The translations under genes and the position numbers were made by a program. Positions 1 to 28,530 of a stretch of DNA of 64,000 nt are shown here, in pieces (position 1 is the stretch's first letter; every line of letters starts with the position of its first letter). Source of the stretch: an uncultured delta proteobacterium (GTDB taxonomy: Bacteria > Myxococcota > Myxococcia > SLRQ01). The stretch spans positions 1,536,001-1,600,000 of the forward strand of contig CAVSGM010000002.1 in assembly GCA_963727485.1 (NCBI GenBank). The letters are read 5' to 3'. The notes under the pieces were generated by a model. That model was not told where the DNA came from and searched no databases. It was given only the letters and a program-made list of their open reading frames with translations.

Positions 1-366
1 CCACGTTGGCCACCGCCGCGTCGAGGGCCGCCGCCACCTGCGGGCCCGGGTCGAGGGCCTCCACCCGGATGGCGAAGTGGAGGCTCTTCCGAATCCCCGG
101 GCGCGGCCAGGGGCCGCGGGAGGAGGCGCACCCGGCCCACCACCTGGCCCCCGGCCTTCCGGGTGAGGGTGAAGGTCACCCGGTCCCGGTCGATCGACAC
201 GTCGCTGTAGACGTAGCCCCCGGGCAGCACCCGATCGCCGCCGGCCTCGCCGAGGAGCCCGGCGATCCGCCCGGCCGCCCCCCGGGGGAATCCCCTGGGC
301 GATGGCGGGCAGCCCGGCGACGAGGGTGGCGGCGAGGACGAGGCCCCTGGCTTGCTGGCGGGTCAT
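1..366 (-). CDS. Secreted hypothetical protein, runs off the window edge, two apparent frameshifts (~275, ~95)
   Basis: ATG at 366 gives the signal-like MTRQQARGLVLAATLVAGLPAIAQG. After frame changes it reads GGDRVLPGGYVYSDVSIDRDRVTFTLTRK...RKSLHFAIRVEALDPGPQVAAALDAAVANV. It is absent from the ORF track and was translated by hand. Confidence 0.55.
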   Translation of the reverse strand, partial: MTRQQARGLVLAATLVAGLPAIAQGIPPGGGRADRRAPRRGRRRSGAARGLRLQRRVDRPGPGDLHPHPEGRGPGGGPGAPPPAAPGRARGFGRASTSPSGWRPSTRARRWRRPSTRRWPTW

Positions 367-389
367 GGTTGCGACTAAACAAACGGTGC

Positions 390-2213: not shown

Positions 2214-2402
2214 TGGCTCGGGTCAACCCCGGGTTCACCCGTCCCGAGTTTACTTCCCTCCACCAGTAGTCCAAAATCGTATCGCTATTATTGCCCCCCG
2301 GCGTACGGCTTGCCCGGCAGGGGAGGGGATGACGACGGCCGACGGGCGGTCGGCGGTCGGCGGTCGGAACTGGATGCCAGAGCATTGGAGGAGCAGGTCG
2401 GT

Positions 2403-5400: not shown

Positions 5401-5537
5401 CCGACGGCGGCTCCGGCTCGGGCGCCACCCCCGGTGGCTGCTGCACCACGGCCCGGGGCGGCCAGCCGGTGATGGCCCTGTGGGCGGCGTTGGGTCTGCT
5501 GCTCCTCATCCCGCGGCGCCGGCGGTACCGCGGGTGA
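2403..5537 (+). CDS. Large Thr/Ser/Asp-rich surface protein with Ig-like repeats and a MYXO-CTERM-like sorting signal
   Basis: A GGAGGAG RBS lies upstream of the ATG. The signal peptide ends AYA and is followed by a carboxypeptidase-regulatory-like start (GTISGTV). Repeated DPxGDP(I/L)TY modules lead to a C-terminal Gly linker, GGCC, a TM helix and RRRR. Confidence 0.85.
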   Translation: MRAPSENLRSIGRVTLGLVAAVCLLGLSVPAYAATGTISGTVLNSGGAGVAGIRVVAYRSTSKGYQAVKSVVTPAGGAYSLTGLVDGTYKILARINPSGNTPTGGTSVTKDDWYGDKIIEEQATTVTIKNANTVSGRNLTLSAGTWGSVYVKAPGGAAVSSGMLCRAEDETDPRVNHLTSQMTVAVSGSSPGYAETGRCVFLGIEPTASANGAYHLWLHDTQARYKDLFTATPKSAATNSYINWGNVTLTALPADPNEPNNSLSAFTNINSGVGSNLYGYPAATYTVSNGVITPGDVDVYCWLGQAGDRFIVTATTSTNLTGSQRYSPFVDPYLQVHGAVFGNKANDDGGPGPLDARVDTGLLAQGQQVCAEVSTYNDTTLTGASQGSHGTYSLVVGMGNRPPVITKPADGSSVQVLEGATINEAITVQDPDSAHPTLTATLQDTGGNVVSKGSLTYDPTACTGGTGSPFTCDGSWSWTTATLDSNGSPYSLILKASDGEFTTTSTVSLVVAKNNLPPTTPVQTDPADGSQVASNQPTLTITNSTDPNGDPITYHFELYDTDPSTGTGITPIATQDVANDPSGSTSWATTQTLTENKTYWWRVQADDGTAGANATSSWTGYWSFFVNTVNDPPLPPQLTEPVDGSTVQTVQPTLTVNNTTDPEGDPITLYYEISTDPTFADTTQTVATSQAVPQVSGTSTTDWPVDAAQRLKYGTDYYARAYAQDDKGAQSTYSNVDHFTTPADNPPTDPSLGAPFDATCSNLVITDSANIPTQVVVNNPTDPENDPLQLELQVYDASADPSAPGFTPAIDTTVAVDTTGTTTTIPVDPSVLTENGHFIVRVQASDGTMQSNWVQCDLWINTTNTPPSAVTILSPTKGSTFDASTTTVSVKVQNASDPDYGIPGTSLAIAYCASKQSDFSDCPTDQTTWPNVPQTSGNPTGTTDFPLSVAAGDTWYVKVCAIDESGVCGATDQTNFSVKTASAGNDGGSGGTDGGSGGGTDGGSGSGATPGGCCTTARGGQPVMALWAALGLLLLIPRRRRYRG

Positions 5538-5553: not shown

Positions 5554-7359
5554 ATGAAGGCCCTCATCAAGGTCGGCTACGGGTGCAACGACCACTGCAC
5601 CTTCTGCCACACCCTCGACGTCCGCCATCTCGATGACACCGCCGCCGCGGTCGATCGCAAGATCGACCGGGCGGCGGAGCTGGGCCACACCATGGTGGTG
5701 CTCTCCGGCGGGGAGCCCACCATCCGCCCGGAGCTCTACCGGTGGGCGGGGCGCACGGTGCGCCTGGGCCTCGACTTCGGCCTGGTGACCAACGGGCGGC
5801 TGCTGTCCTACCCCGAGGTGGCCGAGCGCCTCCTCGGGCTGCGCCTCAAGTACGCCTACATCTCGCTCCACGGGGGCACCGCCAAGGTCCACAACGCGGT
5901 GGTGCGCTCCCACGCCTTCGAGGAGAGCTTCGGGGCGTTCAGAAACCTCACCGGGCGGGGCGTGGACCTCACGGCCAACTGCGTGGTCACCAAGGTGAAC
6001 CTCCCGCACCTCCGGGCGCTGGTCGACCTGCTGCTCCCCTACCCCGACGTGACGGTGAAGTTCTCCATGGTCGAGGCCAAGGGGGGCGGCGCGAAGCTCT
6101 TCGACAGCATCGTGCCGAGGGTCGCCGAGGTGGCGGCGGGGGTCCGCGACGCCCTGGCCTACGGTGCCGAGCGCGCCGGACCCGAGGGGGCGCACCGGTT
6201 CACCCACGGCGGCATCCCCCTGTGCCTGATGCAGGGCTACGAAGACCGCTTCGACGACCTGCGCACCGACGGCTTCGCCACCATGACCGAGGTCTGGGAG
6301 CCCGACTTCTTCCCCGTCGACGACCTCAACAAGACCCAGCCGCCGCCGTGCCGCGACTGCGGGCTGCGGGCGGCGTGCCCCGGGCTGTTCACCGGCTACC
6401 TCGAGCGCCACGGCCACGGGGAGCTGAAGCCCACGCCCGGCCTGCGGTCCAACTCCTTCAACTACGTGCCCACCAGGCGGCTCACCTGGCTGGTGGGCAC
6501 GCCGTGCCCGGTGCGCCGGGACGGGGTCACCCCCTACGACCGGGGGCGCTCGGTCTTCGTCCGCGAGGGCGAGACCATGGTCCTCTACGAGACCCGCACC
6601 CGGGACTTCGCCGACCCGGAGATCGACGAGGTCAAGCGCCGGCAGGGGCAGGTGTACCTCGACGTCTCCGACAAGCCCGCCCCCGACGACTTCGCCCGCG
6701 ACCTCAAGAAGCTGGCCCGGGTGGACACCTGCAACACCTGCCCGGTGGAGACGCTGTGCGCCGGGTGCTACCACGCGCTCCCCGACGACGTCTTCCGCCG
6801 GGACGACGCGCTCCTGCGCGAGCGCCTCGAAGCCTTGACCGGCGACGTGCTGGACCTCGGCTGCGGGGACGGGCGCTACGCCGACGTCCTGGCGGAGGCG
6901 GTGGCGGCCGGACGGGTGCGCTACCACGGGGTGGACCCGGACGCGGCGGTGCTGGCGGCCGTGGCCGCGCGGCTCCCTGGCGCCAGGACCAGCTGCGCCC
7001 GGGCCGAGGATCTGGCGCTGGCGCCTGCGAGCTACGACCACGTGCTGCTGCTCCAGAGCTACGACCACCTGGTGGAGCCGGATCAGGTGATCCCCCGGCT
7101 GGTGAAGGCCCTGCGCCCGGGTGGTACCCTCCTGGTGGCCGACAACGTGGCCTTCGGCCTCCTGCGCTCCCCGGGGCAGGCGGCGCGCGCCGAGGCGGGG
7201 CCGGCCCGCTTCGAGCACCATCGCAACCATGACGCCGGGGCGGCGGAGCCGCTGTTCGCCGGCCACCCCCTCACCCTTCTGGCCCGCCGCGACGTGGGCC
7301 CGGGAACCAGCAACCAGTGGTTCCTCCACTACCGACGCCAAGAGGAAGCCGCATGCTAG
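5554..7359 (+). CDS. Radical SAM protein (HxsC-like) fused to a C-terminal class I SAM-dependent methyltransferase
   Basis: CNDHCTFC, SGGEPT and TNG motifs; Cys clusters CRDCGLRAACPG and CNTCPVETLCAGC; methyltransferase motif I VLDLGCGDG and 'LRPGG'. Confidence 0.9.
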   Translation: MKALIKVGYGCNDHCTFCHTLDVRHLDDTAAAVDRKIDRAAELGHTMVVLSGGEPTIRPELYRWAGRTVRLGLDFGLVTNGRLLSYPEVAERLLGLRLKYAYISLHGGTAKVHNAVVRSHAFEESFGAFRNLTGRGVDLTANCVVTKVNLPHLRALVDLLLPYPDVTVKFSMVEAKGGGAKLFDSIVPRVAEVAAGVRDALAYGAERAGPEGAHRFTHGGIPLCLMQGYEDRFDDLRTDGFATMTEVWEPDFFPVDDLNKTQPPPCRDCGLRAACPGLFTGYLERHGHGELKPTPGLRSNSFNYVPTRRLTWLVGTPCPVRRDGVTPYDRGRSVFVREGETMVLYETRTRDFADPEIDEVKRRQGQVYLDVSDKPAPDDFARDLKKLARVDTCNTCPVETLCAGCYHALPDDVFRRDDALLRERLEALTGDVLDLGCGDGRYADVLAEAVAAGRVRYHGVDPDAAVLAAVAARLPGARTSCARAEDLALAPASYDHVLLLQSYDHLVEPDQVIPRLVKALRPGGTLLVADNVAFGLLRSPGQAARAEAGPARFEHHRNHDAGAAEPLFAGHPLTLLARRDVGPGTSNQWFLHYRRQEEAAC

Positions 7360-9023
7360 AGGCCGACGCCACCTTCGACGCCGAAGGCCAGAAGATCGCC
7401 GAGAAGGAGTCCGCGGCGCACGAGAAGCGCGCCTGGATCCGGCTGACGAGCTACTGCAACAACCGCTGCACCTTCTGCCTCGACTCGGCGGCCCACAACG
7501 GGACCTACGTGCCCCGGCTCAACATCCGCTCCCAGATCATCGACGGGCGGCGCAAGGGCGCCACGCGGCTGATCCTCTCCGGGGGCGAGCCCACCATCCA
7601 CCCCAACTACGTGGAGTTCATCAAGCTCGGGCGGCAGCTGGGGTACCGGAAGATCCAGACGGTCACCAACGGCCGGCTCTTCTCCTACGACGACTTCATC
7701 GGCAAGTGCCTCGACGCCGGGCTCTCGGAGATCACGTTTTCCATCCACGGCCACAACGCCAAGGTCCACGACGCCCTGGTGGGGGTGAAGGGTGCCTTCG
7801 ACGAGGAGGTCGAGGGGCTGAAGAAGGCGCTGGCCGACGGCCGGCCCATCGTCAACGTCGACGTCTGCCTCAACAAGGGCAACGTCCGGAACCTCCCCGA
7901 GCTCCTCGACATGTTCATGGAGATCGGCGTGCGCGAGTTCGACCTGCTCCACCTCATCCCCTTCGGGCGGGCCTACGAGGAGGGGCGCAACTCGCTGTTC
8001 TACGACATCGACGAGGCGATGCCCGCGATCCAGCACGCCCTCGAGCTCTCCAAGCGCCCGGACGTGCACATCTGGTTCAACCGCTTCCCGCCGCCGTACC
8101 TCGAGGGCCACGAGCACCTGATCCAGGACCCCTACAAGCTCAACGACGAGGTCCGCGGCCGCTACGAGGAGTACGAGCGGTGGCTGGAGCACGGGGTGCC
8201 CCTCTCGTGCCGCGAGCCCGACCGGTGCAACCGCTGCTACCTCCAGAACCTCTGCGACACCCTCGAGGGGAAGATGGCGACGCAGAAGGACGACCGGTTC
8301 GAGCTGATCCGGGTGCACGCGGGCGCCGCCGGCACGGACGTGGAGCTGCCGAAGCTCACCGGCACCTACGCCGGGAGCTGGCTGTGTGCCCCGGACGTGG
8401 CCGCCGCCAAGGCGCTGGCGGGCCGGCTCCCGGGCGACGAGCTCACCCTGGAGCTCGAGGACTACGACGGCCTCGCCGAGGCCCTGGGCGACGGGAAGCT
8501 TTCGGGCAAGAAGCTGGTGCGCGCCTACGCCGCGCGGCCCGAGGACGTCGAGGCGCTGCTCGCCCTCGAGGGCGATCATGAGGTCGTCGCCTGGCTCAAC
8601 CAGGCCAACGTGGCGGCGCTGTTGGAGAAGGGCACCGAGGCGCCGGCGCGCCTCGCCCTCTCGGGCCGGAACTACGAGCGGCTCACCGAGGCGTCCGAGC
8701 AGGACCCGGACCTCAAGGCCTTCTTCGCCGCCTACGACAAGGCGGTGCCGGTGGAGGACGTCCCCGCGTGCATCAGCGGCCGAGCGCCGCGCGCCCGCCC
8801 CGAGGTCCTCGACGCCTCCATGCTCCAGCCCGGTGGGCGCCTGGACATCTACGGCTACGCCAAGCGCTACATCCTCGACCACTACTACACCAAGAGCCAT
8901 AGGTGCCGCGGCTGCGCCCACTTCGAGGGCTGCGCCGGGGCGCACATCAACTGGGTGCGCGCCCACGGGTACCAGACCCTGGTGCCGGTCCCCGGCGAGC
9001 CGGCGAAGCAGGCGGCGGGGTAG
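7353..9023 (+). CDS. Radical SAM protein (HxsC-like) with two Cys-rich auxiliary clusters
   Basis: ATG overlaps the upstream stop. Motifs: CNNRCTFC, SGGEPT, TNG, SIHG; CNRCYLQNLC; C-terminal CRGCAHFEGCAG. Confidence 0.9.
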   Translation: MLEADATFDAEGQKIAEKESAAHEKRAWIRLTSYCNNRCTFCLDSAAHNGTYVPRLNIRSQIIDGRRKGATRLILSGGEPTIHPNYVEFIKLGRQLGYRKIQTVTNGRLFSYDDFIGKCLDAGLSEITFSIHGHNAKVHDALVGVKGAFDEEVEGLKKALADGRPIVNVDVCLNKGNVRNLPELLDMFMEIGVREFDLLHLIPFGRAYEEGRNSLFYDIDEAMPAIQHALELSKRPDVHIWFNRFPPPYLEGHEHLIQDPYKLNDEVRGRYEEYERWLEHGVPLSCREPDRCNRCYLQNLCDTLEGKMATQKDDRFELIRVHAGAAGTDVELPKLTGTYAGSWLCAPDVAAAKALAGRLPGDELTLELEDYDGLAEALGDGKLSGKKLVRAYAARPEDVEALLALEGDHEVVAWLNQANVAALLEKGTEAPARLALSGRNYERLTEASEQDPDLKAFFAAYDKAVPVEDVPACISGRAPRARPEVLDASMLQPGGRLDIYGYAKRYILDHYYTKSHRCRGCAHFEGCAGAHINWVRAHGYQTLVPVPGEPAKQAAG

Positions 9024-10434: not shown

Positions 10435-11883
10435 CTAGAAGCTCCCATGGATCGTCACCGCGGCGCCCCCGGGACCGGGACCGGCGCCAGGGAGAAGACG
10501 TCACCGCCCGCGGGCGCGTTGCTCGGGGCGGCGGCCCCACCCGCCGGCTTGAGGAAGAGCCAGCTCCCCACCCCCGCGCCCACGATCCCCACCGCGTAGA
10601 GGATGTCGGCGACCAGGGCCTGGCCGCGCGCCTGGGAGAGGGTCTTCTGGTAGAGGGCGTCGTCGAGCTGGGGGACCGCCCGGGCCTTGGCCGCGGTGCC
10701 GTTGGCCGAGAGCCCCATGACCACCCCGCCGACGATCGCCGCCACCCCCACCCCGCCGGCGATGACGCCGTAGAGCTTGGGGCCGGCGAAGGAGAGGCCG
10801 CTGGAGAGGGTGGTGATGGGCTCGCCGCCGGGGCCCCGGGGCCGGTCGGTCTTGTGGATGCCCGGCGGCAAACGCCATGACCGCCTGGGCCAGGCCGTGG
10901 CCGGAGGGGACGTCGGCGCTGGAGACCGCCAGCAGATGGCCGTCGTTGGCCACCCGGGCGCCGTCGAGATGGAGGCCCTTCTGGGCGCCGGTCGTCACCC
11001 GCACCGCCAGCACCTGCTTGGCCCCGGCCCACTTGGCCAGCGCCGCCTCGGGGCGCGACCACGCCTGCTTCTTGAAGCCGGCGGCGACGCCCTGGAGCAG
11101 GGCGTCGAGCCTGGCCTTGCCCGGGGCCGCCTGGAGCTTGACCTCGACCAGCTTCCCCGGAGCGGCGAGCTGCCGGCTCTGGCTGAAGGCGTAGCCGGGG
11201 CGGACCGCCGTGACCATGTGGTAGCCCGGGGTCAGCCCCTTGGCCTCGGCCGGGGACACGCCGACGTAGTTCCCGTCGACCCACACCTGGGCGTTCGCCG
11301 GGCTGGTCTGGACCTCGAGGCTGGTGGTGGGGATCTTGGTCTGGTTGGCCCGGACGCCGTTGACCACCTGCTGGACGTCGGGGGTCATCCGCGTCTTGTC
11401 GAACTGGTAGTCGTGGTCGAGGGTGAAGATGTCGATGAGCTGGTTGCGGGCGTCGGCGACCTTCCCCGCGTAGTAGAGGGCGAGGACCCGGGCCCCGTAG
11501 ACATCGAGGAGCCCCTTGAGGTGGTCGCGGATGTCCGAGTCGAGGTAGGCCTTGGCCGCCGCGTCGAGGTCGGCGAGGGCCTCGTCGTAGGAGAGGCTGT
11601 CGTAGGCGGTGAGGCCGGCCTGGAGCTTGGCCGCGCCGGTCTTGGCCGCCGCCTGGCGCTTGGCCGGCCCGTCGCCCATGGCCGTGTCGGCGACGCTCAC
11701 CGGGGAGTAGCGCCCACTCTTCGCGGTCCACGCCTCGAGGGCGCGGGCGACCGCAGGCGCCGCGGAGGCGCTGCCGGCGTCCGCCGGAACCACCACCACC
11801 GCCTCCTTGACGGCGGCGTGCGCCGGACCGGCGGTGACGAGGGAGACGGCCAGCAGCGCAGGGGCAACGATTCGTGATCTCAT
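10435..11883 (-). CDS. PEGA-domain secreted/membrane protein (frameshifts at ~10870 and ~10470)
   Basis: Signal peptide, TPR-like helices, and PEGA motif 'LEVQTSPANAQVWVDGNYVGVSP...LTPGYHMV'. The C-terminal TM part is in ORF 10455..10871, and a further shift gives the ending GGAAVTIHGSF-stop. Confidence 0.75.
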
Positions 11884-11917
11884 GCCGTTCGCACCATAGC
11901 AGAAAGAGGTTGGCCGG

Positions 11918-14108
<2,191 letters not shown>

Positions 14109-14188
14109 GTTACGAGGCTTTCCGGGGGCGGTCAAAGCGCCTTTTGACGCCTTGGCGCCGGTGGCCGGGCCCGTCTATGCTGGCGCCG

Positions 14189-15435
14189 ATGACCCCTCCT
14201 GCCCGGGCCGGCCGCGCCGGCGCTGCGACCCCGCGACATCACCCTCCCCGAGCCCGGATCCACCACCGCCCGGGAGGTCCTCTCCCGGGCCATCCGGGCG
14301 GTCCTCGGCGACCTGGTGCGCCTCCCGCCGTCGATGTGCCTGACCCCGGCCGGGCGCCGGAGCGCCGAGGGGCTCCAGGCCGCCGTCCGGGCCGCGGCGC
14401 GCCGGCACCCCGGGGCCCTGGCGAGCCTGGTCCGGGACCCCACCGCCGGCGCCCTGGTCCGGGTGCTCCGGGAGCGGCGCGACGGCGAGGGGGATCCGGA
14501 ACGGATCGATCCCCTCTACGGCGAGCTCGCCTGCGTCCTCGGCCTGGGGCTGGCCCGGGCCGGCGCCCTCGAGGCGCCGCTCACCTGCGCCCCGGCCCCG
14601 GCGCGGATCCTCTCCCTGACCCTGCGCCTCTCGCTGCCGCTCCCCGAGGGGACCCGGGCGGTGACCTTCGATCCCACCGGCGCCGTCACCGCCGAGACCG
14701 GCGCCGGCCCGGTGCCGGTGGACCTGTCGACGGCCACCGACCCCTACCACCCCCTCGACGCCGACAGCGTGCTGGCCACCGCCGACAACAACCCCCTGGC
14801 GATGTTCGAGCTCCACCCCGACAAGTCGGGCAACGCCCTGGACCTCGGGGGCCGGGACCCGGCCGAGTGGGTGGCGACGCTCCGGGAGGCCCTCGACCTG
14901 GTCGAGGCCCACCTCCCCGACGCTCCGGGAGGAGATGCGCCTCTTCGTCCGGCAGGTGGTCCCGGTGGGCTATGACGCCGAGCGCCACCTCTCGGCGAGC
15001 TACCAGGAGGCCATCGGCACCCTCTACCTGACCCTCCACCCCCAGCTGATGACCATGACCGAGGCGCTCATCCACGAGTTCAGCCACAACAAGCTCGGCG
15101 CGCTGCTGGAGCTGGACCCGCTGTTGGAGAACGCCTTCCACCCCCTCTACAAGAGCCCGGTGCGCCCGGACCCGAGGCCCCTGCACGGGGTGCTCCTCGC
15201 GGTCCACGCCTTCCAGCCGGTGGCGCGGCTCTACGAGCGGATGATCGAGGCGGACCACCCGCGGGCCCGGTCGGCGGACTTCCGCCGGCGCTACCAGCAG
15301 ATCCTCGCCACCAACCGCGAGGGCGCCGAGACCGTGCTCACCCACGGCGTGCCCACCGAGGTGGGGGCGGCGGTCCTCGACGAGATCCGCCGCTGGGACG
15401 ACCACTATCGGGGCGCCATCTCGTCCCAGCCGTAG
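14189..15435 (+). CDS. HEXXH-motif peptide-modification protein (alphaKG-HExxH hydroxylase-like), frameshifts ~14215 and ~14920
   Basis: Joined from ORFs 14316..14975 and 14935..15435. 'EALIHEFSHNKL' and 'YKSPVRPDPRPLHGVLLAVHAF' match the HEXXH and SPWRxDPRP signatures of rSAM-associated HEXXH proteins. Confidence 0.85.
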
Positions 15436-16457
15436 CGGGCGAGGTAGTTCTTCCACACCCCCTCGCACACGGCGTCGTAGCGGCAGGTGGCGCACTCGGG
15501 GCGCTTGGCGCGCTCCACCGCGTCGAGGTCGGACCGGCGCACCTCGAGGAGCTCGGCGTCGCCCCCCTCGGCGAGCGCGTGGGCGCTGGCGGCGTTCGCC
15601 GGGGCCGCGGGATCGGCGACCTCGTAGTGCTTGTAGCGCTCCACGTAGCCCCGGTTGCGATCGGGGATCCCCTCGGTGACGCACAGGGGGATGTCGACGA
15701 GGTAGGCCTGGAGGTCGTCGTCGCCGGCGGCGGCGGCCTCGGCGCAGAAGGCCCGGAACCGGTCGGCGATGTCGGTGTACCGGGGGAAGAGCTGGTCGAA
15801 GTAGGTGTTCGCCCGGCCGTTGGCCTGCATCACGTTGAACACCACCTGGTCGACGCCGTGGCCCCGGAGGAACCGGTAGATGTCGGCGAAGTGCTCGAGG
15901 TTGCGCCGGGTGACCACCGTGGAGGTGTGGAGGCTGACCCCGTGGCGCTTGAGCCTCGCCACGTTGTCCAGGCCCTTCACCGTCTGGACGAAGGCGCCGG
16001 GGGTGCGCACCAGGCCGTCGTGGAGCTTCTTGGTGTGCCCGTGGATGGACACGTAGAAGAAGTTCATCCCCGCCTTCACCAAGGTGGCCAGGTAGGGCAG
16101 GTGCGAGAGGCGCCGGCCGTTGGTCATCACGCTGATGCGCCGGTAGCCGAGCGCCCGGGCCCAGGTGCAGTACTGGGGCAGGCCCCGGACCAGGGTGGGC
16201 TCACCGGAGGTGAAGCAGACCTCCTCGGCGCCGGCGTTGGCCTCGAGGATGTGGCGGATCCGCTCGGGGGTGAGCGCCCCGTTGACCTCCTCCCGGAGCG
16301 CGCGGTCCTCCTCCATGCAGAAGATGCAGTTGTTGTTGCACACGGGCCCGAGGTTGATGTGGACCCGCTCCACGCGCCCCTCGATGCGGCCCGCCACCGA
16401 CGCCTCGGGGGCGAGGGGGACGGGGGCCTGCTGGAGGATGGGGAGGCGCTCGGCCAT
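15405..16457 (-). CDS. Radical SAM protein (HxsC-like)
   Basis: CNNNCIFC, TSGEPT, TNG, SIHG and DIPLC motifs; C-terminal KRPECATCRYDAVCEG. Overlaps the HEXXH gene tail-to-tail by 31 nt. Confidence 0.9.
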   Translation of the reverse strand: MAERLPILQQAPVPLAPEASVAGRIEGRVERVHINLGPVCNNNCIFCMEEDRALREEVNGALTPERIRHILEANAGAEEVCFTSGEPTLVRGLPQYCTWARALGYRRISVMTNGRRLSHLPYLATLVKAGMNFFYVSIHGHTKKLHDGLVRTPGAFVQTVKGLDNVARLKRHGVSLHTSTVVTRRNLEHFADIYRFLRGHGVDQVVFNVMQANGRANTYFDQLFPRYTDIADRFRAFCAEAAAAGDDDLQAYLVDIPLCVTEGIPDRNRGYVERYKHYEVADPAAPANAASAHALAEGGDAELLEVRRSDLDAVERAKRPECATCRYDAVCEGVWKNYLARYGWDEMAPR

Positions 16458-16598: not shown

Positions 16599-17180
16599 AT
16601 GAAGAAGGTCGATCGTCGCGACGCCCTGAAGTTCCTCGGTCTTGGCATCCTGGCCGCCGGGAGCGCTCCGCTCCTCGGCGCCCGGCGCGCCGCCGCCGAG
16701 CCCCGGCTCCCCCGGGCCGGCCGCGGGACGCCCAAGGCCACCGTCTCCCGGGACGGCGCCGCCCCGGCGGTCCGCGCTCCCCTCGACACCCCGGTGCCCG
16801 CCGACCCCACCTCGGCCCTGGCGCCGCTGGGCGTCGGCAGCCGCCTCGCCGGCTCGACCATCCTCCGCGTCGACGGCCCCGACCACGGCGCCATCCACGT
16901 GGACCTGCGGGCGGCCGACGGCCACACCTTCCGGGTGGAGATCTGCCGCCACGACGCCGGGGGCCCGGCGCCGGTGACCCGCACCCGTCACTACGACCTC
17001 TTCCTCGCCAACGGCGGCCGCGGGGACAAGCGCACCGACCGGTCCGAGGGCCTGGCGGTCCTGGGGCTCACCGAGGCGCTGCGCCACAACGAGGCGCGCG
17101 CCCGGAAGCTGCCGGTGATGACCATGCGCCGCCGGTGGGCGAGCTTCCGGCCCACCGAGCTCTCCCGCTACGACGGGTAG
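16599..17180 (+). CDS. Tat-exported hypothetical protein
   Basis: GGAGG RBS; twin-arginine signal MKKVDRRDALKFLGLGILAAG...AAA. First gene of the operon with two rSAM genes. Confidence 0.8.
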   Translation: MKKVDRRDALKFLGLGILAAGSAPLLGARRAAAEPRLPRAGRGTPKATVSRDGAAPAVRAPLDTPVPADPTSALAPLGVGSRLAGSTILRVDGPDHGAIHVDLRAADGHTFRVEICRHDAGGPAPVTRTRHYDLFLANGGRGDKRTDRSEGLAVLGLTEALRHNEARARKLPVMTMRRRWASFRPTELSRYDG

Positions 17181-17183
17181 CGC

Positions 17184-18170
17184 TTGAGCGCATCCGCCGC
17201 GGTACCCGACCCTCCGGTCTCGCCGGGGGGTCGCTTGCGCCTGCACCTGGGCTACCGGTGCAACAACCGCTGCGTGTTCTGCGCCCAGGGGGACCTGCGC
17301 CGAGGCGAGGCCGCGCCCCCGGATGACGCCACGGTGGCCGCCCGCCTCGCCGCCGGCCGGGCCGCGGGCCTCGAGGCGGTGGCCTTCGTGGGCGGCGAGC
17401 CCACCGTCCACGACGGGCTCCCCGGGTGGATCGCCGAGGCCCGGCGCCAGGGCTTCACCTCGGTGCTCGTCCAGACCAATGGCCGGCGGCTGGCCTACCC
17501 CGGCTACGCCGCCGCCCTCGCCGAGGCGGGCCTGGAGGCGGTGGAGGTGTCCCTCCACGGGCCCACCGAGGCGATCCACGGCTACCACACCCGGGTTCCC
17601 GGGAGCTTCGCCCACACGGCGCGGGGCCTCGGCGCCGCCCGGTCCGCGGGCCTCACGCTGGCCCTGACCTGCGTGTCTCACCCGCTCGAACTTCCGCCAC
17701 CTCCCGGAAATGGTCCGCCTCGCCGGCCGCGCCCGGGCCGCGGCCCTCCACCTGGCCCTGCCCCGGGTCCGGGGGCAGGCGGCGACCGGCTTCGATCGGG
17801 TGGTGCCCCGCCTCGGCCTCCTGCGCCCCTACCTCGCCGCCGCCGCCCGCCTCGCCTGCGACCCTGCGCGTCCCCCTGGTCCTCGGGGGCCTGCCGCTCT
17901 GCGCCGCCGCCGCCGCCCCGGGGGCGGTGCGCCTCGAGGTCGCCGACGCCGGGGGCGCCTTCGGCCCCGGCTGCGACGGCTGCCCGGTGCGGGGCGCCTG
18001 CCCCGGCGTCGACCCCGCCTACGCCGCCGTCCACGGCACCGCCGAGCTCACCCCCGTGGCCGACGGCCACCGAGCCCGCCTCCCCGGCGCTGGCCCGGCA
18101 CTTCGCCGGCACCGGCCCCATGGCCGATGCGGCCGAGGGGCCTGCGGTACACTCGGCCGAAGGCTCCTGA
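17184..18170 (+). CDS. Radical SAM protein (HxsC-like), several frameshifts (~17676, ~17855, ~18070)
   Basis: CNNRCVFC, GGEPT, QTNG and SLHG motifs. The alternate frames give 'GLPLC' and 'CDGCPVRGACPG'. Confidence 0.8.
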   Translation: MSASAAVPDPPVSPGGRLRLHLGYRCNNRCVFCAQGDLRRGEAAPPDDATVAARLAAGRAAGLEAVAFVGGEPTVHDGLPGWIAEARRQGFTSVLVQTNGRRLAYPGYAAALAEAGLEAVEVSLHGPTEAIHGYHTRVPGSFAHTARGLGAARSAGLTLALTCVSHPLELPPPPGNGPPRRPRPGRGPPPGPAPGPGAGGDRLRSGGAPPRPPAPLPRRRRPPRLRPCASPWSSGACRSAPPPPPRGRCASRSPTPGAPSAPAATAARCGAPAPASTPPTPPSTAPPSSPPWPTATEPASPALARHFAGTGPMADAAEGPAVHSAEGS

Positions 18171-19401
18171 TGGCGAACATCGGCTACATCCAGGTCGTCC
18201 GGCACTGCAACCACTTCTGCGGGTTCTGCTCCAACCCCACCACCCCCTACAGCCACACCTTCGAGTCGATGAAGGTCCTGGTGGACGACTTCGTGGCCCG
18301 GGGCTACTTCGGGGTGATCCTCACCGGCGGCGAGCCCAGCCTCCACCCGGACCTCCCGCGGATCTGCGCCTACGCCCGGGAGCCGGCCTCCACGTGCGGA
18401 TGATCACCAACGGCTCGCGGATGGCCGACCCGGCGTTCGCCCGGGAGATGGCCGACGCCGGGCTCCAGCTCGCCCACGTCTCGGTGTACTCGGTGCGCCC
18501 CGAGGTCGAGGCGCGCCTGCGCGGGATCCCCGGGACCCTGCCCAAGGCCTTCGCCGCGGTGGACAACCTCGTCGCCAGCGGCGTCGAGGTGAACATCAAC
18601 TGCGTCATCAACAAGCTCAACGCCGACCACCTCGACGAGAACATCCGCTACTGGACCGCCCACCACCCGGCGATCCGCCACTTCGTGTGGAACAACCTCG
18701 ACCCCTCGATGGGCCGCGCGGAGGTGAACCAGGACCAGTTCACCCCCCGGCTCGCCGACTTCGAGGTGTCGCTGGCCCGGGCGCTCTCGCTGCTCCAGAA
18801 GACCGGGCGCACCTTCCGGGTGGAGAAGGTGCCGCTTTGCTACATGGTCGACTTCGCCTGGGCGAGCACCGAGACCCGGAAGATCGTCAAGGGTGAGGAG
18901 CGCATCGTCCACTTCCTCGACGTGAAGCAGACCGTGCGCCAGACCCACTGGGAGCACGTCTACAGCGAGGCCTGCGACGTCTGCTCGCTGCGGACCATCT
19001 GCGGCGGGCTCTTCGACCGGGGCGACGCCTACGACCCCGCCGAGCTCCACCCGGTGTTCGTGGACCGGGACCAGGTGGTGCGCCGGATCATCGAGGACGC
19101 CGGGGACCCGAGCTACGCCCTCCGGGACCTCGAGGCCTGGCGCGACGACTTCGACCGACGCCTCGCCGACGCCCGGACCGAGGCGGGGAGCGCGCACGCG
19201 CCGGCCGGGGACCTGCCGCCACCCTCGATGCGCGATCCCGGGGCCCCGGCGGTGGGCCAGATCACCGAGGAGAGCCGCAAGCGCTTCGAGGCCAAGCGCC
19301 GCGCCGAGGGGCGCCGGGCGGAGAAGGTCGGGGTGCGCCTCGAGCGCCTGGCGATCCAGGCGCCCGAGCTCGCCGAGGGCGACGGCGAGGCGGGCGACTG
19401 A
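18170..19401 (+). CDS. Radical SAM protein (HxsC-like), frameshift ~18382
   Basis: ATG overlaps the upstream [23 protein letters not shown] and TGGEPS continue in the next frame as ITNG, VPLC and [12 protein letters not shown]. Confidence 0.85.
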
Positions 19402-19485
19402 GGCCGCGCCGCCCGGATGCACGTCGGCCGGACCGCCTTGGGGGCAGCCCGGCCGAAGGGGTTGCGGGGTCGGCTGCGGGGTCGG

Positions 19486-19803
19486 CTACCAGGACCCGTG
19501 GGACCCGTGCGAGCCGTGGGACCCGTGCGACCCATGCGAGCCGTGCGAGCCGTGGGACCCGTGCGAGCCGTGGGACCCGTGGGAGCCGTGCGACCCGTGG
19601 GAGCCGTGCGAGCCGTGGGAGCCGTGCGAGCCGTGGGAGCCGTGCGACCCGTGGGAGACGTGCTGCGCCAGCAGGCGCCCGCCACCCGGGACCTCACCCG
19701 CCTCGGTCGCGGACGCGGCCTCCTTGGACGAATCCTTCAGCTCGTGCTCCAGCTCGGAGAGCAAACCCTTGGAGCGCTTCTTGTACTTGGGAATCTTTGC
19801 CAT
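19486..19803 (-). CDS. hxsA: His-Xaa-Ser repeat precursor peptide (HxsA-type): 47-aa leader + HVS + (HGS)18 + W
   Basis: The translation is direct from the sequence. It lies 25 nt downstream of the HxsB-type rSAM on the same strand, with an AAGGGG RBS-like sequence upstream. The leader ends LLAQ before the first HxS. Confidence 0.92.
19492..19662 (-). repeat. 9-bp coding tandem repeat (19 His-Xaa-Ser codon triplets)
   Basis: Units are CA(C/T)-GG(C/G)-TC(C/G), varying only at synonymous positions apart from the first (HVS) unit. Confidence 0.95.
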
Positions 19804-19828
19804 GAACGGCCCCTTGACGTTCCAGCCC

Positions 19829-21356
19829 CTACGACTCTGCCGGCGACTCTACCACGTCGTCTGCAGGGTCGGAAGTGTGAAGGAAGTGGTCCCGGGGACG
19901 GTTGGTGGTCCACCTACGGAAGACCTCCAGGGTCCCGGGGTCGGCCTCGCCGAGCTTCCCGAAGAGGTAGTCCTGGATGCCCTTGATCGCGTGGCACCAG
20001 GCGCTGTCGCGCATCCGACCGCCCAGGCTCCCCTGGTGCCGGTAGTTGTACTCCGGGGAGATCCCACAGAACGGGTGGTAGGCGCAGTTCACGCAGTCGG
20101 GGCTCGAGTCGAGGATCGAGGCGAGGGTCACCGCCCGGGTGGTCTCGTGCTCCATGAGCGCCTGGTAGCTCGAGGTGTCCACGTGGCCGATGTGGAACAT
20201 GTCGTCCCCCATCTCGTGGAGCATCCGGCCCTCGTCGCTGGTGAAGATGAGCCCGTCGTAGTTGTAGGCGAGCCCGCCGATGCCGGCGCCCGCAGGGGTT
20301 GCGCAGATCGAGGAAGTTCGGGTCCTCGCCGCCGAGGATCTTGGTGAGGAGGATGGCGGCGTAGCGCTCCAGGATCTGGGTGCCCTGGAGGTTGAGCTGC
20401 ACCATGTAGTCGACCGCCTCGGCGTAGAAGTCGAGGTAGGCCCGGCGGTCGTAGTCGACCTTCTGCCCGGTCTTGGCGGCGAAGCCGAAGGGATCGACCG
20501 GGCGGAGGAAGAGGGCCCGGCACCCGAGCTCGACGTAGGTGTCGACAATCTCGCGCGGGTACTTCAGCGCCTCCTTGGTGGTCGTGAGCAGCGCCTCCAC
20601 GTGGTAGAGCGTGGTGTCGAGGCCGCGCTCGGCGTAGGCCTCGTTGATGCGCTTGATCCACTTGGTGGCATGCGAGAAGGCGTCGCCGCCGGGGAGGATC
20701 CGCTGCTTGTTGTGCAGGTGCTTGGGCCCGTCCACCGAGGTGCACATCTGCACCTTGTTGTCGAGGAGGTAGTCGAGCTTCTCCTCGGTCATCAGCGACA
20801 TGTTGGTCACCAGGGTGAACTCGAGGCTCTTGCCGAGGGTCTCGTTCTTCTTCTTGGCGTACTCGATGATGTGCTGCATCACCGGGTAGTTCACCAACGG
20901 CTCGCCGCCCTGGAACTCGAGGGTGACCCAGGGGCTGGTGGTCTCGAAGGCGAGATCCACCATCTTCTCCGCGGTCTCCTTGGACATGTCGGTCTGCGTC
21001 GCCTCCATGCCGGCGCGGCTGGCGTGGCAGTAGACGCAGGTCTCGTTGCACCGCAGGGTGACCACGGCGATGTGGAGGTTGGGGCCGTAGTGCAGGAAGC
21101 GCTGGCGGGCGGCCAGCCGCTGGGCCAGGTCGTCCACGTCGACCTCGGCCCGGAGGAAGTTCTTCTCCTTGAGGGCCTGATAGGTCTCGGAGGTCGGGTC
21201 CAGGCTCCCGTCCACGAAGGCCCGGAACTCCGCGGGCTCGAGGAGGTGGAACTGGCCCACCTGGTTGGTGACCAGGTAGCGCTCCCCCACCACCCGGTAG
21301 CGGAAGAAGGCGGGGAACGCCGGGTCGATCTGCTCCACCTGGGCGAGCTGCCTCAC
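19829..21356 (-). CDS. hxsB: His-Xaa-Ser system radical SAM/SPASM maturase HxsB (frameshift ~20292)
   Basis: '[22 protein letters not shown]', 'LEFQGGEPL', '[26 protein letters not shown]' and SPASM-like [11 protein letters not shown]...WC. It sits between HxsD-like genes and the HxS precursor. GTG overlaps the upstream stop. Confidence 0.85.
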
Positions 21357-21574
21357 TGGCCCCCCCGCTTCTCTTCGATGGTGAGCGCCAGGGCGTAGTT
21401 GCCGAACTCGCCGGCGACCTCGTCCTCGTCGGCGTCGTCCTTGGCGGTCAAGGCAATCTCGAAGTAGGGCATCTTCTGGGTGGAGGCGATCTCGGCGACC
21501 TCGTCGAAGACCTCGGCGGTGGTCTCGAGGGCGGCGGCCGAGTAGGCCTGGTGGTGGAAGCGCAGGTGCCGCAC
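21353..21574 (-). CDS. Small HxsD-like protein
   Basis: '[20 protein letters not shown]...GEFGNYAL' parallels the neighbouring HxsD ([19 protein letters not shown]...GEFANELL). Confidence 0.7.
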
Positions 21575-21577
21575 CGG

Positions 21578-22102
21578 TCAGCCCCCCGCCGCCTGGTCGT
21601 CGCCACCGTCCGCCGGGGGCGGGCCCTTGGGCGCACCCTCCTTGGGGGCCTCGGCCTCGCCCTGCTTGCCGTACTTCTCCTCCCAGCTCATGGCGATGCC
21701 GAGGGGATCCTCGAAGGCGTCGTCGGAGAAGTCCATGTCGCCGGCGAGGTCGTCGAGGCTGGCGGTGCCGGTGGCCCCGGCGAGCGCCTGGGCGGCCACC
21801 GCCTCGATGATCGGCTTGTTGTACTCGGTGATCTCCCGGCGCCAGGCCTGGGACAGGAGCTCGTTGGCGAACTCCCCGGCGAGCGCCGAGAGGTCGTCGG
21901 CGGAGAGGGCCTCGCGCCCCCGGAGCACCACCTGCACGTGGGTCTCGTCGGGCACGTCGAGGAGGACGTAGCACCGGTCGATGAACACGTAGGCGGCGCC
22001 GTAGATGGCGTCGAGGGGGTAGAGGCTGCGCTCGAAGCGCACCTGCACCCGGTTGTCGTCGGCTTCGACCTGGATCTGGTCGAGCCCCTGGTCCTTGTCC
22101 AC
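21578..22102 (-). CDS. hxsD: His-Xaa-Ser system protein HxsD with acidic C-terminal extension
   Basis: '[19 protein letters not shown]' and '[15 protein letters not shown]' resemble the HxsD family (LLNDYxLRE-like motif). First gene of the hxsD-hxsD'-hxsB-hxsA operon. Confidence 0.8.
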
Positions 22103-24785: not shown

Positions 24786-25040
24786 TCAGTCGGTGTAGGC
24801 CACCGCGACCCAGCGCCCGTACTTCTTCTTGAAAACGGCGACGTAGCCGTGTCCGCCGAGGTCGGCGATGGCCACCCAGGCGTCCTTCAGGTCCAGCTTG
24901 CCGAGGCGGGCCGGCGGCGGGCCGTACTGCTGGACCATGGCGTCGGCCGGGAGCGTCTTCATCCCGTAGAGGGGCAGGCGGGAGAAGTCCTTGCCCTGGA
25001 AGAGCTCGGTGAGCAACTCGTCGACGGTGGGGCCGTCGCC
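24786..25040 (-). pseudogene. 3' fragment of an unknown gene abutting the IS91-like remnant
   Basis: An unrelated, codon-typical tail (DELLTELFQGKDFSRLPLYG...GRWVAVAYTD) follows the transposase C-terminus in frame and has no start of its own. Confidence 0.45.
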
Positions 25041-25756
25041 GTCAAGTCCGGTGGGCGGAGCCCGAGCGTGGGCCAGGCCTCGTCGGCGCGGCACCGTGGG
25101 CAAGCCCAGGTGATCGAGGATACGGCGGACCACCGCGGGCTCCATGATCACCGCGACGACCTCCACCCTGCCTTGGCACTCGGGGCAGGTGGTGAGGTCG
25201 TGCCCGAAGACGCGCTTCAGCAGGTCGGCCCAGGGTATCCGGCGCTGGCGGACGTCGCTGGGCGGCTCCCAAGGCTGCCCACCGCTCCGGCTCGAGGTCG
25301 ATTGCTCGGGGTTCTGGCCCTTCGGGGGGACGAAGGCGGCCAGCCGGCGCAGGAGGTCGACCGGATCGAGTAGCAGCTGGCTGCGACCATCGCGCAGCGG
25401 CTTTCGCAGGCGATAGTAGACCTCGCCCCGCGTGCCCTCCTCCAGGCGGTGCTCGGCGAAGGGAGGCCGCAGACCGTAGCGCAGGATCCGCTCGAGGCCG
25501 GCCCGGTCATTGGGGTTGAAGGCGACGAGCTGCTCTCCGATGGACCGGCCCAGCTCGGCTGCGAGAACACGCCGTCGGGGAGGAAGCTGTGGAAGTGCAA
25601 GTTGAGGTTGAGTGCGTCGCCGAAGCGCTGGATGCAGGTGATGGAGCCAGCGAGGGGCCGTGCCACCCCGTTGCGACGGGCGCGACGGCAAAGCCAGGCG
25701 AAGAGCACCCGCTGGAAGACTCCGAGGACAGGCGTGACCAGCTCGGGACGCGTCAC
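25041..25756 (-). mobile_element. Degenerate IS91-family (Y2/HUH) transposase remnant
   Basis: HUH motif 'IQRFGDALNLNLHFHSFLPDGVF', 'LERILRYGLRPPFA', 'WADLLKRVFGHD..CPECQGRVEVVAVI..VRRILDHLGLP'. Frameshifted, internally shortened and lacking the N-terminal Zn-binding domain. Confidence 0.8.
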
Positions 25757-26223
25757 CAGAAGGTCGCCAGGTGCCCGCGCACCAAGCGGTGGAAGAGACC
25801 CGAGGCCGGGGTGCGCGGTTGATGGGGGCGCTGCGAGGCCTGGAGAGACGGGGCGAGCAAGGGTCGCCGTGGGCTCGACTCGCCCTGGACGACGTCCGCG
25901 ATCCGGCGATGACGGCCCCAGGGAGCCACCGATGACGCGGCTGCGCTCACTCCGAGGGCTGGGCCGCGGGCGACCGCCACCGCGCTAGATGGTCCAGGAC
26001 GGATCCGAGTCACAGACCCCGGCCTGGTACACCGCCGCCACGATGCGCCCGGAGAGGTGGGCGGCGCGAACGCGGAAGGCGCGCTCGCCGAGGAGCAGGT
26101 GGCTCCCGAAGCCCACCAGGCCCAGGAAGACGATGCTCGCCACGGTCCCGCCCGCGGGCGCCGAGCCGGTCGGCCACTGGACCGTGTAGCGCCAGTTGCC
26201 CAGCAGGACCTTGGGATAGCCGT

Positions 26224-28530
26224 CTAGATTGCGGCGTTGACGTCGTCCTCGGTGAACTCCCACGGCAGCTCCTTGGAGGCCTTCAGCTCGTAGAACCCGC
26301 CGCAGAAGATCTTGTGGGGGCACGCCTCGCACTCCTCGTGATGGCTGCGCTGCGCCTTGAGGTACTCGAAGAGGTTCACGTCGGTGTTGTTCACGAACAC
26401 CATGTGCCGCTCGAGCTTGAGCAGGTCGCCCATCATGAACCGCTCGTAGCCGGGCATGAAGCAGAACGGGAGGTTGATGACCTGGAACTTCATCTTCCCC
26501 TCCCACCGGTCGATGACCGACATGGCCACCTTCGCCGCCGCGGCGGTGTCGGGGTTGACGAACACCGTGGCCCGGCCGAAGGGGGTGAGGAACTGGAGGT
26601 TCATCCACCGCAGCCCCAGGTCCCAGGCGAGCTCGGCCATGGCCGGCAGGTGGGCGTAGTTGCTCTTGGTGACGGTGACGTTCATCCCCAGCTCGACCCC
26701 CAGGGGCCGGTGCTTCACCGCGTGGCGGACCCCGGCGCAGGTCTGCTCGAAGGCCTCGGCGACGCCCACGTTCTGGGCGTGGGTCCTCGCGTCGTGGCCG
26801 TGGATCGAGAAGAGCAGGGTGGTCAGCCCCGAGCGCGTAAGGCTCCGGGCGAAGTCCTCGTAGACCAGGCGCCGGCCGTTGGTGGTGACGTTGATGCGCC
26901 GGTAGCCCAGGGCCCGGGCGTGGCGCACCAGGGGGATGATCTCCTCGTAGAGGGTGGGCTCGCCGCCGTCGAAGTCGACGAGATCGAGGCCCTGGGCCCG
27001 GTAGCGGGCGAGGATCTTCTTCTGGTTCTCGAAGCTCCCGTCGAGCTGGGTCCGGGTGCCCACCGCACAGAAGGTGCAGCGGTTGTTGCACCGGTAGGTG
27101 ACGTTCATGATCACCTTCCGCGGCCCGCGGCCCGCCTCCAGGCGCCGGTCGAAGGTCCACTTGAAGCGGCGGAGCTCCTCGGCGGTGAAGTCCTCGGAGG
27201 TGGTCACCGGGGTGTGCTGGAAGAGCGGCCCGAAGTCGTCGACCACCGGCAGGGGGGTCTTCGCCGCGGCGGCGGCGGTGTCGGCGAGGCGGGTGCCCGG
27301 CAGGGGCGTGGCGAACTGCACCCCGGGCCAGGCGCCGTAGGCCTCGTGGAGGTGCAGGGCCCAGTCGAGGGTGGTGTTGATCTGGGCCTTGGTCTCCCCG
27401 GGCATCCCGATGATGAAGTGGACCAGGGTGGGGATCCCGCGCGCGGCGGCGCCGGCGACCGTCTCCTCGACCCGGGCGAGGTCGAGGTTCTTGCCCACCA
27501 CCCGGTCGACCACGCCCTGGTCGCCGCTCTCGGCGGAGACCGAGAGGGTGGCCACGTGGCCGGCCATGGCGTCGAGGTGCGCCTCGGCCACCCAGTCGGC
27601 GCGCATCCCGTTGGGGAAGTCGAAGGCGAGGTCGTGGGGGGCGAGGGCGGCGAGGAGGGCCTCGAAGTGGCCCGGGTCGACGTTGACCATCTCGTCGAGG
27701 ACGTCGAGGCGGGTGGCGCCGTGCTCCCGGACCAGGGCGTCGACCGCCCGCGCCAGGTAGGCGGCGTCGTACCGGCGCTGGGTCTTCTTCTTCCCCTGGC
27801 GGCCGGGGTTCGAGGAGCAGTGGGCGCACCGGTAGGGGCAGCCCCGGCTGGAGACCATCGGCAGGGTCCGCCCGTCCACCGGGAAGGCCCAGGGCCCGCG
27901 ACCCAGGCCCGCGACCACCCGGGCGAGGAAGGCGTCCCGGGCGGGCAGATCGACCAGGTCCCAGGCGGGCAGCGGCAGGGCCGAGAGGGCGTCCACCTCG
28001 CCGCCGACCACGGTCTCGGGGACCTCGGGGCGGCCGCCGTCGAGGAGGCGCTGGAGGAGGGGCACCAGGGCCTCCTCGGCCTCGTACTTGAGGAGGGCGT
28101 CGACCTCGGGGTAGCTCGCCAGGGTCCCCTGGCCCGGCGCCTCCACGTAGTGCTGCCCGCTCTGGTAGAGGTCGGCGAGGACCACCGGCGCCTCCGGGAG
28201 GCGCGCCCGGAGACCCTCGAGGAGGGCCCCGAGGAGGGGATCGCGCCGGGGCGGGCGGTGGAACGGCGTGAGGGTGACCACCACCGCGTCGGGGGTGCCG
28301 AGGGCCCCGAGGACCTCGTCGAGGCCCGCGCCGAGGCGGACCCTGTCGCCGTCGAGGTCCTCGAGGGTGCTCCCGGGGAGGGCGAAGGCGTCGAGGAGGC
28401 GCACCTCGAGGCCCGCCTCCCGGATCACCGCCGCCGCCTGCGCCCCGGCGAGGTCGCAGTGGTAGGGGTAGTCGATGAAGTCCCGGGAGAGCCGGAGCGG
28501 CGGCTGGACGACGAGGACCCGAGGGGTCAT
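26224..28530 (-). CDS. Double radical SAM fusion: B12-binding-type (class B-like) rSAM + HxsC-like rSAM
   Basis: N-terminal 'VLVVQPP' B12-binding-like domain; 'SSRGCPYRCAHC', 'PNGMRAD', 'FIIGMPGET' and 'TPLPGT'. The second domain has 'CNNRCTFC', 'DGGEPT', 'TTNG', 'LPFC' and 'CEACPHKIFCGG'. One uninterrupted ORF. Confidence 0.9.
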   Translation of the reverse strand: MTPRVLVVQPPLRLSRDFIDYPYHCDLAGAQAAAVIREAGLEVRLLDAFALPGSTLEDLDGDRVRLGAGLDEVLGALGTPDAVVVTLTPFHRPPRRDPLLGALLEGLRARLPEAPVVLADLYQSGQHYVEAPGQGTLASYPEVDALLKYEAEEALVPLLQRLLDGGRPEVPETVVGGEVDALSALPLPAWDLVDLPARDAFLARVVAGLGRGPWAFPVDGRTLPMVSSRGCPYRCAHCSSNPGRQGKKKTQRRYDAAYLARAVDALVREHGATRLDVLDEMVNVDPGHFEALLAALAPHDLAFDFPNGMRADWVAEAHLDAMAGHVATLSVSAESGDQGVVDRVVGKNLDLARVEETVAGAAARGIPTLVHFIIGMPGETKAQINTTLDWALHLHEAYGAWPGVQFATPLPGTRLADTAAAAAKTPLPVVDDFGPLFQHTPVTTSEDFTAEELRRFKWTFDRRLEAGRGPRKVIMNVTYRCNNRCTFCAVGTRTQLDGSFENQKKILARYRAQGLDLVDFDGGEPTLYEEIIPLVRHARALGYRRINVTTNGRRLVYEDFARSLTRSGLTTLLFSIHGHDARTHAQNVGVAEAFEQTCAGVRHAVKHRPLGVELGMNVTVTKSNYAHLPAMAELAWDLGLRWMNLQFLTPFGRATVFVNPDTAAAAKVAMSVIDRWEGKMKFQVINLPFCFMPGYERFMMGDLLKLERHMVFVNNTDVNLFEYLKAQRSHHEECEACPHKIFCGGFYELKASKELPWEFTEDDVNAAI

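Follow-up and report, generated by a model that had tools for sequence, protein, structure and literature searches.

A His-Gly-Ser repeat precursor without an export signal, and a candidate Tat-signal partner, in a radical-SAM-rich type-4 His-Xaa-Ser cluster from a Myxococcota-like genome

Introduction

What is made from a small peptide that consists, beyond its leader, almost entirely of His-Gly-Ser triplets, and how could the product leave the cell when the leader carries no export signal? These questions are raised by a type-4 His-Xaa-Ser cluster of about 40 kb in a Myxococcota-like genome. It lies partly in the stretch of 64,000 nucleotides analysed here (contig CAVSGM010000002.1, positions 1,536,001 to 1,600,000), which is called the window.

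The HXS system of E. coli acts in the periplasm, where it keeps phage DNA from entering the cell (PMC13128918; Li et al., Nat Commun 2026). According to that work, HxsA undergoes modification, cleavage and export, for which HxsB, HxsC and HxsD give assistance; the chemistry of the H-x-S motif and the export route are left unexplained. No published study of the type-4 system (HxsA4, HxsC4, NF038313) was found in a literature search that lay mostly outside subscription journals.

Results

The precursor gene and the HxsA4 family

The open reading frame at 19486..19803 on the reverse strand was identified as an hxsA4 precursor of 105 residues, with the stop codon directly after the terminal Trp (Table 1). 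The original prediction had described a 47-residue leader ending in LLAQ, one HVS unit, 18 HGS units and a final Trp, with synonymous variation only, and this description was found to be exact. In the 18 HGS units, His is encoded by CAC (17) or CAT (1), Gly by GGC (10) or GGG (8) and Ser by TCC (9) or TCG (9), with changes at third positions only. Such synonymous-only variation in the HGS frame fixes the reading frame. Open frames on the opposite strand were considered and rejected, since the variation is synonymous in the HGS frame alone. The precursor scored 120.5 bits against the NCBIfam HxsA4 model (NF038313, cut-off 55). It is a member of this catalogued family, in agreement with the earlier call of an HxsA-type precursor beside hxsB and hxsD, whose family models also passed their cut-offs. 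The gene is real and under purifying selection, which acts on His, Gly, Ser and the final Trp. Selection on the peptide had been claimed from the single array, and it was seen again in 50 relatives, where 845 units showed 688 synonymous deviations against 3 non-synonymous ones.

The array is the sole run of at least three H-x-S units in the genome (six frames, 5.55 Mb). In a collection of 15 billion proteins three neighbour proteins were present, and the precursor and three overlapping alternative frames were absent, which indicates that the precursor was missed by gene calling; the earlier warning about gene callers thus holds for this assembly. The count of 19 units was read from the assembly, and similar counts were obtained in other genomes, namely 21 in G001, 25 in G003 and at least 19 in G002 (N gap). 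A precursor was present in three of the four genomes of the same family; in the fourth, G004, the match was below the cut-off and its stretch held no precursor. The first unit (window 19654-19662) is HVS here and HCS in 47 of 50 relatives. The lone Cys in the first unit of those relatives could be a thioether site that the lineage studied here lacks. The precursor also scored 38.2 against Pfam Collagen (cut-off 27.2), and Gly occupied 559 of 1118 middle positions across 89 wider homologues. A collagen function was set aside, the match being likely compositional.

In order to place the array among its relatives, the best 80 of 207 hxsD loci were used, a set that overlaps in part with the 301 genomes described below. 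At 54 of these loci 55 precursors were found, of which 50 were complete; five were dropped (cut by the locus end or an N gap; in one of them Arg replaces a His). The complete precursors held 5 to 64 units, with a median of 15 and 19 or more in nine. They comprised 842 HGS and 3 HAS units, started with HCS in 47 cases and ended in HGSW in all. Across these HxsA4 relatives the array varies freely in length and keeps a fixed composition. H-x-S motifs were also counted in 120 of 147 protein matches (median 11, maximum 29, at least 19 in 10), a few of which are unrelated low-complexity proteins. The view that 19 units are unusual was therefore not borne out. The statement that typical HxsA peptides carry only a few units is right for canonical HxsA, which has five in E. 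coli (PMC13128918), and wrong for the HxsA4 group. The number of repeats is as such of little importance. In G048 (L024:9351-10745) two precursors stand in tandem, one of 59 and the other of 35 units, and precursors with 64 (L091) and 53 units (L058) were observed at other loci. Across the wider family His and Ser are nearly invariant and the middle residue is variable. The closest hxsD loci were Myxococcota records. On inspection, the HxsA4 matches in G018, G087 and G118 showed no precursor.

Table 1. Features of the precursor and its cluster, in window coordinates
Feature	Position	Strand	Remark
Leader, 47 aa	19663..19803	-	P-x10-L-x2-E block kept; ends AQ
Leader, Arg-Arg position of Tat-type relatives	19663..19803	-	Asp-Ser instead; no hydrophobic segment
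Core, HVS + 18 x HGS, 171 bp	19492..19662	-	variation synonymous only
Terminal Trp codon and stop	19486..19491	-	HGSW end common to all 50 complete Trp-ending relatives
AAGGGG, purine-rich, likely ribosome-binding site	19810..19815	-	7 nt before ATG; putative function
14-bp hairpin, possible terminator	19424..19456	.	between convergent genes; after precursor stop; z -2.8
HxsB, radical SAM/SPASM maturase, predicted N-terminal RRE-like domain	19829..21350	-	TIGR03978, 385 + 148 bits in two frames
HxsD-like	21353..21574	-	NF038315, 58.4 vs 41; at 79/80 hxsD loci
HxsD	21578..22102	-	TIGR03976, 60.8 vs 50
Second HxsC-like radical SAM, frameshifted in assembly	18170..19401	+	convergent with hxsA4
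HxsC-like radical SAM, frameshifted in assembly	17184..18170	+	
Candidate export partner, conserved 193-aa protein outside known families, with twin-arginine-like signal	16599..17180	+	Arg-Arg in 15/15 aligned
HxsC4 radical SAM	15405..16457	-	NF038332, 543.5 vs 500
Alpha-ketoglutarate HExxH-type peptide beta-hydroxylase, frameshifted in assembly	14193..15435	+	TIGR04267, 92 vs 40; 17/80 loci
HxsC-like radical SAM	7353..9023	+	family at 18 loci
Radical SAM + SAM-methyltransferase fusion	5554..7359	+	family at 34 clustered loci
Two-domain protein, B12-type radical SAM + HxsC4-like	26224..28530	-	12/80 loci

The gene cluster

All five NCBIfam models of the type-4 set were above their cut-offs in the window (NF038313, NF038332, NF038315, TIGR03978 and TIGR03976). 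The genes follow in the order hxsD, hxsD-like, hxsB, hxsA4, and linkage of the precursor gene to the other three and to hxsC4 is conserved. A profile search detected 14 radical-SAM domains between 1,524,812 and 1,563,111 of the contig (C2), and the B12-type domain brings the number to 15, eight inside the window and seven upstream of it. One upstream radical-SAM family recurs at 13 hxsD loci; we infer that the other upstream families belong to the cluster too. The upstream stretch (L119, G000:C2:1516001-1536000) holds the seven domains, with one more radical-SAM gene at its far end, and two flavin-halogenase-like genes (L119:2941-4557, reverse; L119:6566-8788, forward). Canonical HxsC (TIGR03977) was passed by none of 13 matches in this genome, which is 93% complete, the best reaching 95 bits against 267.9; the intact orthologue of one split HxsC-like gene scored 104 bits. 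Canonical HxsA (TIGR03979) had no match in the same 93% complete genome. Precursors lying apart from hxsD were found elsewhere in the genome in five of five cases, with hxsC4 directly after in four of those five.

Several further genes were noted. Another contig (L120:8802-11245, G000:C1) carries a further copy of hxsB, which is intact and has an HxsC-like gene after it; this pair has no precursor nearby and adjoins threonyl-tRNA synthetase and PHA-synthase-like genes, and separate hxsB/HxsC-like pairs occur likewise in G001, G003 and G048. More HxsC-like radical-SAM genes are situated away from the cluster (G000:C11:943520-944029 and C2:398130-399527). Within the cluster span are a membrane glycosyltransferase-like gene with a weak PMT_2 match (window 3-2210, forward) and a gene for a secreted protein of 1100 residues (2214-5537, forward). 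Ser/Thr kinase and PEGA-domain genes (10500-14135, reverse) interrupt the cluster, and both look frameshifted near their ends. Fragments at 24849-25990 presumably resemble an IS91-type transposase. Two open frames of 1834 residues (57821-63325, forward) and 1034 residues (53765-56869, reverse) gave no clear Pfam family. An ABC transporter at 22.2-24.0 kb was considered as exporter and rejected, as one weak 26% match was obtained in 80 loci.

Four neighbours of the precursor are split in the assembly: hxsB (into two frames near 20,300, the larger part above the TIGR03978 cut-off), two HxsC-like genes and the HExxH gene. This is what would be expected if the cluster were decaying, or if the repeat itself were a product of slippage or assembly. 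However, rpoB is split in the same assembly, so indels are likely genome-wide, and the orthologues of the split genes are intact in relatives. Contigs of other runs, at a depth under or near 5 and with hxsB outside their coverage, differ by single bases at 14915, 17857, 18063 and 18382/18383, inside split genes. The frameshifts in the neighbours thus look like assembly errors. Simple slippage is excluded by the synonymous-only variation of the array. Decay or artefact has already been largely refuted and is considered highly improbable.

Leader, Tat signal and partner protein

Positions 1 to about 29 of the leader share homology with the FLxxEEG leaders found across the wider family (E 2.5e-5 at an hhalign probability of 75%, against E 0.88 for a reversed control). 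The wider-family leaders run on into a hydrophobic segment, whereas the leader studied here does not. Over 15 residues, the median hydropathy was 1.93 in 89 wider homologues and 0.01 in the 50 relatives, with a maximum of 0.12 here.

The HxsA4 cut-off was passed by 29 of 301 genomes of the phylum. Leaders were read in 29 genomes, with one genome below the cut-off included and one over the cut-off but devoid of a precursor excluded; G103, G113, G115 and G128, all below the cut-off, were left out. Signal-bearing leaders, with a hydrophobic segment, occurred in 19 of the 29; the segment is preceded by T-R-R in 15 and by T-R-G in 4. The T-R-R type precedes the same (HGS)n-W core at L127, L131, L132, L136-L145, L148 and L149. 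When TIGR01409 was applied to three signal-bearing precursors, one passed and two were just under. The remaining 10 genomes, including that of the window, had signal-less leaders with neither the motif nor the segment. Both types align without gaps, and Asp-Ser stands here in place of Arg-Arg; Arg-Arg was found in only 2 of 54 signal-less leaders. A Tat substrate would be expected to show the Arg-Arg motif and the hydrophobic segment, and neither is present in the leader of this precursor. The putative Tat signal within many HxsA4 leaders, and its absence from the lineage studied here, is a new observation.

A protein with a twin-arginine-like signal is encoded nearby. The 193-residue candidate partner has an invariant Arg-Arg and a hydrophobic segment; TIGR01409 gave a weak match or none (one of three sequences, E 0.037, none passing). 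It lies within 10 kb of hxsD at 39 of the 80 loci, and in the window and at several loci it stands directly before an HxsC-like gene. Among the 301 genomes it was detected in 12, all precursor-positive, which comprise all 10 signal-less genomes and 2 of the 19 signal-bearing ones. These counts include related genomes that are not independent of each other, so that a Fisher value overstates the association, and the profile, for which only signal-less lineages were used, may miss distant copies. The partner was present in five of five further signal-less genomes. G201 and G213 hold a Tat-bearing precursor and the partner together, so the association is not exclusive. A relaxed search of five signal-bearing genomes returned one weak match of 50 residues. 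The genome contains tatC. A confident domain was predicted for the partner (mean pLDDT 77) and no clear fold match was obtained (best Z 5.3; no Foldseek match at E 0.001; Atlas best 0.77), searches that say nothing on the novelty of the fold.

Modification of the array

Family scores, PDB search and fold of HxsB were taken on an intact orthologue (L039). Among the best 25 of 52 families, it reached 96-120 bits on the Nif11, QhpD, PapB, CcpM, ScfB-related and SCIFF models, and scored far below the cut-offs of the cyclophane synthase models YhhB (62 against 445), GrrM/OscB (51 against 310) and AmcB (50 against 425). The best PDB sequence match was CteB (E 9e-20, against 5e-6 for ChlB). The predicted model matched CteB (TM 0.65), anSME (0.62), TigE (0.60) and ChlB (0.60). 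The scores of CteB and ChlB are close, and the predicted folds do not decide between thioether and cyclophane formation. At the N-terminus the model has three strands and three helices, and it aligns with CteB over the full length. Three strands plus three helices is the layout of an RRE. An RRE-like domain is accordingly predicted there, with support from the full-length CteB match.

The sole modification measured in any HXS system is that of E. coli. There, a single net +8 Da (+C-4H) was mapped to SHRSS within peptide 48-78, which includes all five repeats according to the supplement's sequence; in the accessible text the authors assign the change to HxsC-HxsD and do not settle what it is (PMC13128918). 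By arithmetic +C-4H equals one methyl plus three losses of 2H, so rings are possible. Rings from His C2 to a beta-carbon are known for the motifs HAA, HNR and HTK (PMC11499958), so that some rings may form in an HGS array as well. The up to 19 His-Ser cyclophanes that had been proposed are unsupported, given that HxsB scores closer to the thioether-type models and that E. coli shows one net +8 Da. The SAM-methyltransferase fusion, the B12-type domain and the hydroxylase seem to point to mixed tailoring.

Distribution of the system

The system was found in three of three genomes of lineage f1, 12 of 17 of f12 and three of three of f16, against 6 of 141 of f2. Its genes are dispersed on chromosomes with housekeeping neighbours, and a quick version of the HxsB tree largely follows lineage. 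The precursor has no peptidoglycan-binding domain and no Arg in its repeats. Lack of anchor and Arg, restriction to lineages, housekeeping neighbours, dispersal and the lineage-like tree together weaken the reading as a mobile defence system. PADLOC, with a library of 2023 that predates the description of HXS, gave no specific match among 16 proteins.

Discussion

The reading put forward here, which we hold tentatively, is that the HxsA4 precursor is modified by radical-SAM enzymes in the cytoplasm, crosses the membrane as Tat passenger of the partner and ends as a histidine array of the envelope. Its steps differ in strength. The first 25-30 residues would be the recognition element, probably read by the RRE-like domain of HxsB with the help of HxsD and the HxsD-like protein. 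The radical-SAM enzymes encoded nearby are likely to act on the HGS array in the cytoplasm. HxsB, HxsC4 and the HxsC-like paralogues would introduce a mixture of oxidative links and one-carbon additions at His and Ser rather than an identical ring per triplet, a step to which we give a slight preference. Removal of the leader near the junction of AQ with His is reasonably probable; no conserved protease was found among the gene families of hxsD loci. Exit by Tat hitch-hiking could occur but is held with less assurance. Such hitch-hiking is established for enzyme heterodimers, e.g. NiFe hydrogenases (PMC10924467), and the co-occurrence of the partner with signal-less precursors suggests that the peptide may be exported in this way, with putative binding between the two. 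The product would be a multivalent histidine array in the cell envelope. That it keeps phage DNA out at the envelope, as the E. coli system does, is conceivable though doubtful.

Two other readings bear on the route and on the chemistry. The signal-less peptide might stay in the cytoplasm, or leave as small modified fragments, the Tat-like stretch serving enzyme recognition and the Tat-signal protein having a separate job. In many relatives from outside the myxobacteria, Lys-Lys or other residues occupy the place of Arg-Arg, and the partner, placed before an HxsC-like gene, could be substrate or accessory of that enzyme. However, both the tracking of the signal-less state by the partner (10/10 against 2/19) and the full n-h-c signal layout of 15 precursors would be left unexplained, and this reading is judged improbable. 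A similarly low probability is given to HxsB as a three-residue cyclophane synthase that joins His to the beta-carbon of Ser in up to 19 rings. The near invariance of His and Ser beside a variable middle residue fits such an enzyme, as do the rings on HAA, HNR and HTK (PMC11499958), the compatibility of rings with +C-4H and the ChlB fold match. Against it stand the thioether-type and related models, which score about twice as high as the cyclophane synthase models among the best 25 of 52 families, and the better PDB sequence match to CteB. What was recorded in E. coli is one localised +8 Da instead of a loss of 2 Da for each repeat, and the published model, in the part of the text available, puts the motif in HxsC (PMC13128918). 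In G001, G003 and G048, hxsB does not adjoin the precursor.

The same precursor and maturation could also yield a peptide, or a polymer at the surface, that binds metals (Cu, Zn, Ni) instead of a phage barrier. A His at every third position, neutral Gly/Ser spacers and a free length of 5-64 units would suit a scalable ligand array, and the concentration in f1, f12 and f16 against f2, with dispersal on chromosomes, is in line with this function. It is nevertheless rather unlikely, as no conserved metal transporter or regulator was found among the recurring gene families of hxsD loci and the one relative that has been studied is antiphage (PMC13128918).

The envelope array proposed here belongs to a system that is an undescribed variant of a catalogued one, with a signal-less leader, a co-occurring Tat-signal partner and a cluster of 15 domains. 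The NCBIfam type-4 set, known as catalogue entries, has the same five models and gene order; the present sub-branch differs in its nearly pure (HGS)n-W core, the lack of a signal segment and the partner gene. With the canonical HXS system of E. coli and other Pseudomonadota (HxsD-HxsB-HxsC-HxsA), as far as its published description was accessible, it shares HxsB and HxsD orthologues, tandem H-x-S units after an A-G/Q junction and HxsC-like radical-SAM partners (PMC13128918). In contrast, canonical HxsC and HxsA are missing here, and the precursor, unlike canonical HxsA, has neither signal peptide nor peptidoglycan-binding domain and ends at its repeats. There are 19 neutral HGS units here and five Arg-containing ones there, and 15 radical-SAM domains against two (PMC13128918).

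Triceptides and the His cyclophane synthases HaaB, YhhB, HtkB and ChlB have in common with this locus a His-X-X motif and an adjoining radical SAM/SPASM enzyme (PMC11499958), and the aromatic-X-X triceptide motif is present in the core as His-Gly-Ser. HxsB is set apart from them by its scores on the YhhB, GrrM/OscB and AmcB models and by the predicted RRE-like domain. In the literature accessible, part of it in partial text, no His-Ser ring is described for any Hxs enzyme. Tat hitch-hikers such as the NiFe hydrogenases likewise pair a signal-less protein with a Tat-signal partner from the same cluster, but the known passengers are folded enzyme subunits, whereas the candidate passenger here would be a modified repeat peptide with putative binding to the partner (PMC10924467).

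The E. coli HxsA formed inclusion bodies (PMC13128918). Compared with that protein, a soluble precursor that lacks a signal and consists of near-identical repeats offers a cleaner substrate on which to read the chemistry, and there are cultured carriers among the relatives (Polyangium, Chondromyces and Nannocystis records). The Tat signal in many HxsA4 leaders, together with its apparent hand-over to a partner, makes a testable export model. In its full form, which must be regarded as rather unlikely, this model would have a branch of Myxococcota lose the Tat signal of the leader and rely on a dedicated carrier, itself outside any known family, to bring the heavily modified peptide across by Tat. 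If true, a modified peptide of ribosomal origin would travel by a hitch-hiker route and supply an envelope structure whose making involves up to 15 radical-SAM domains.
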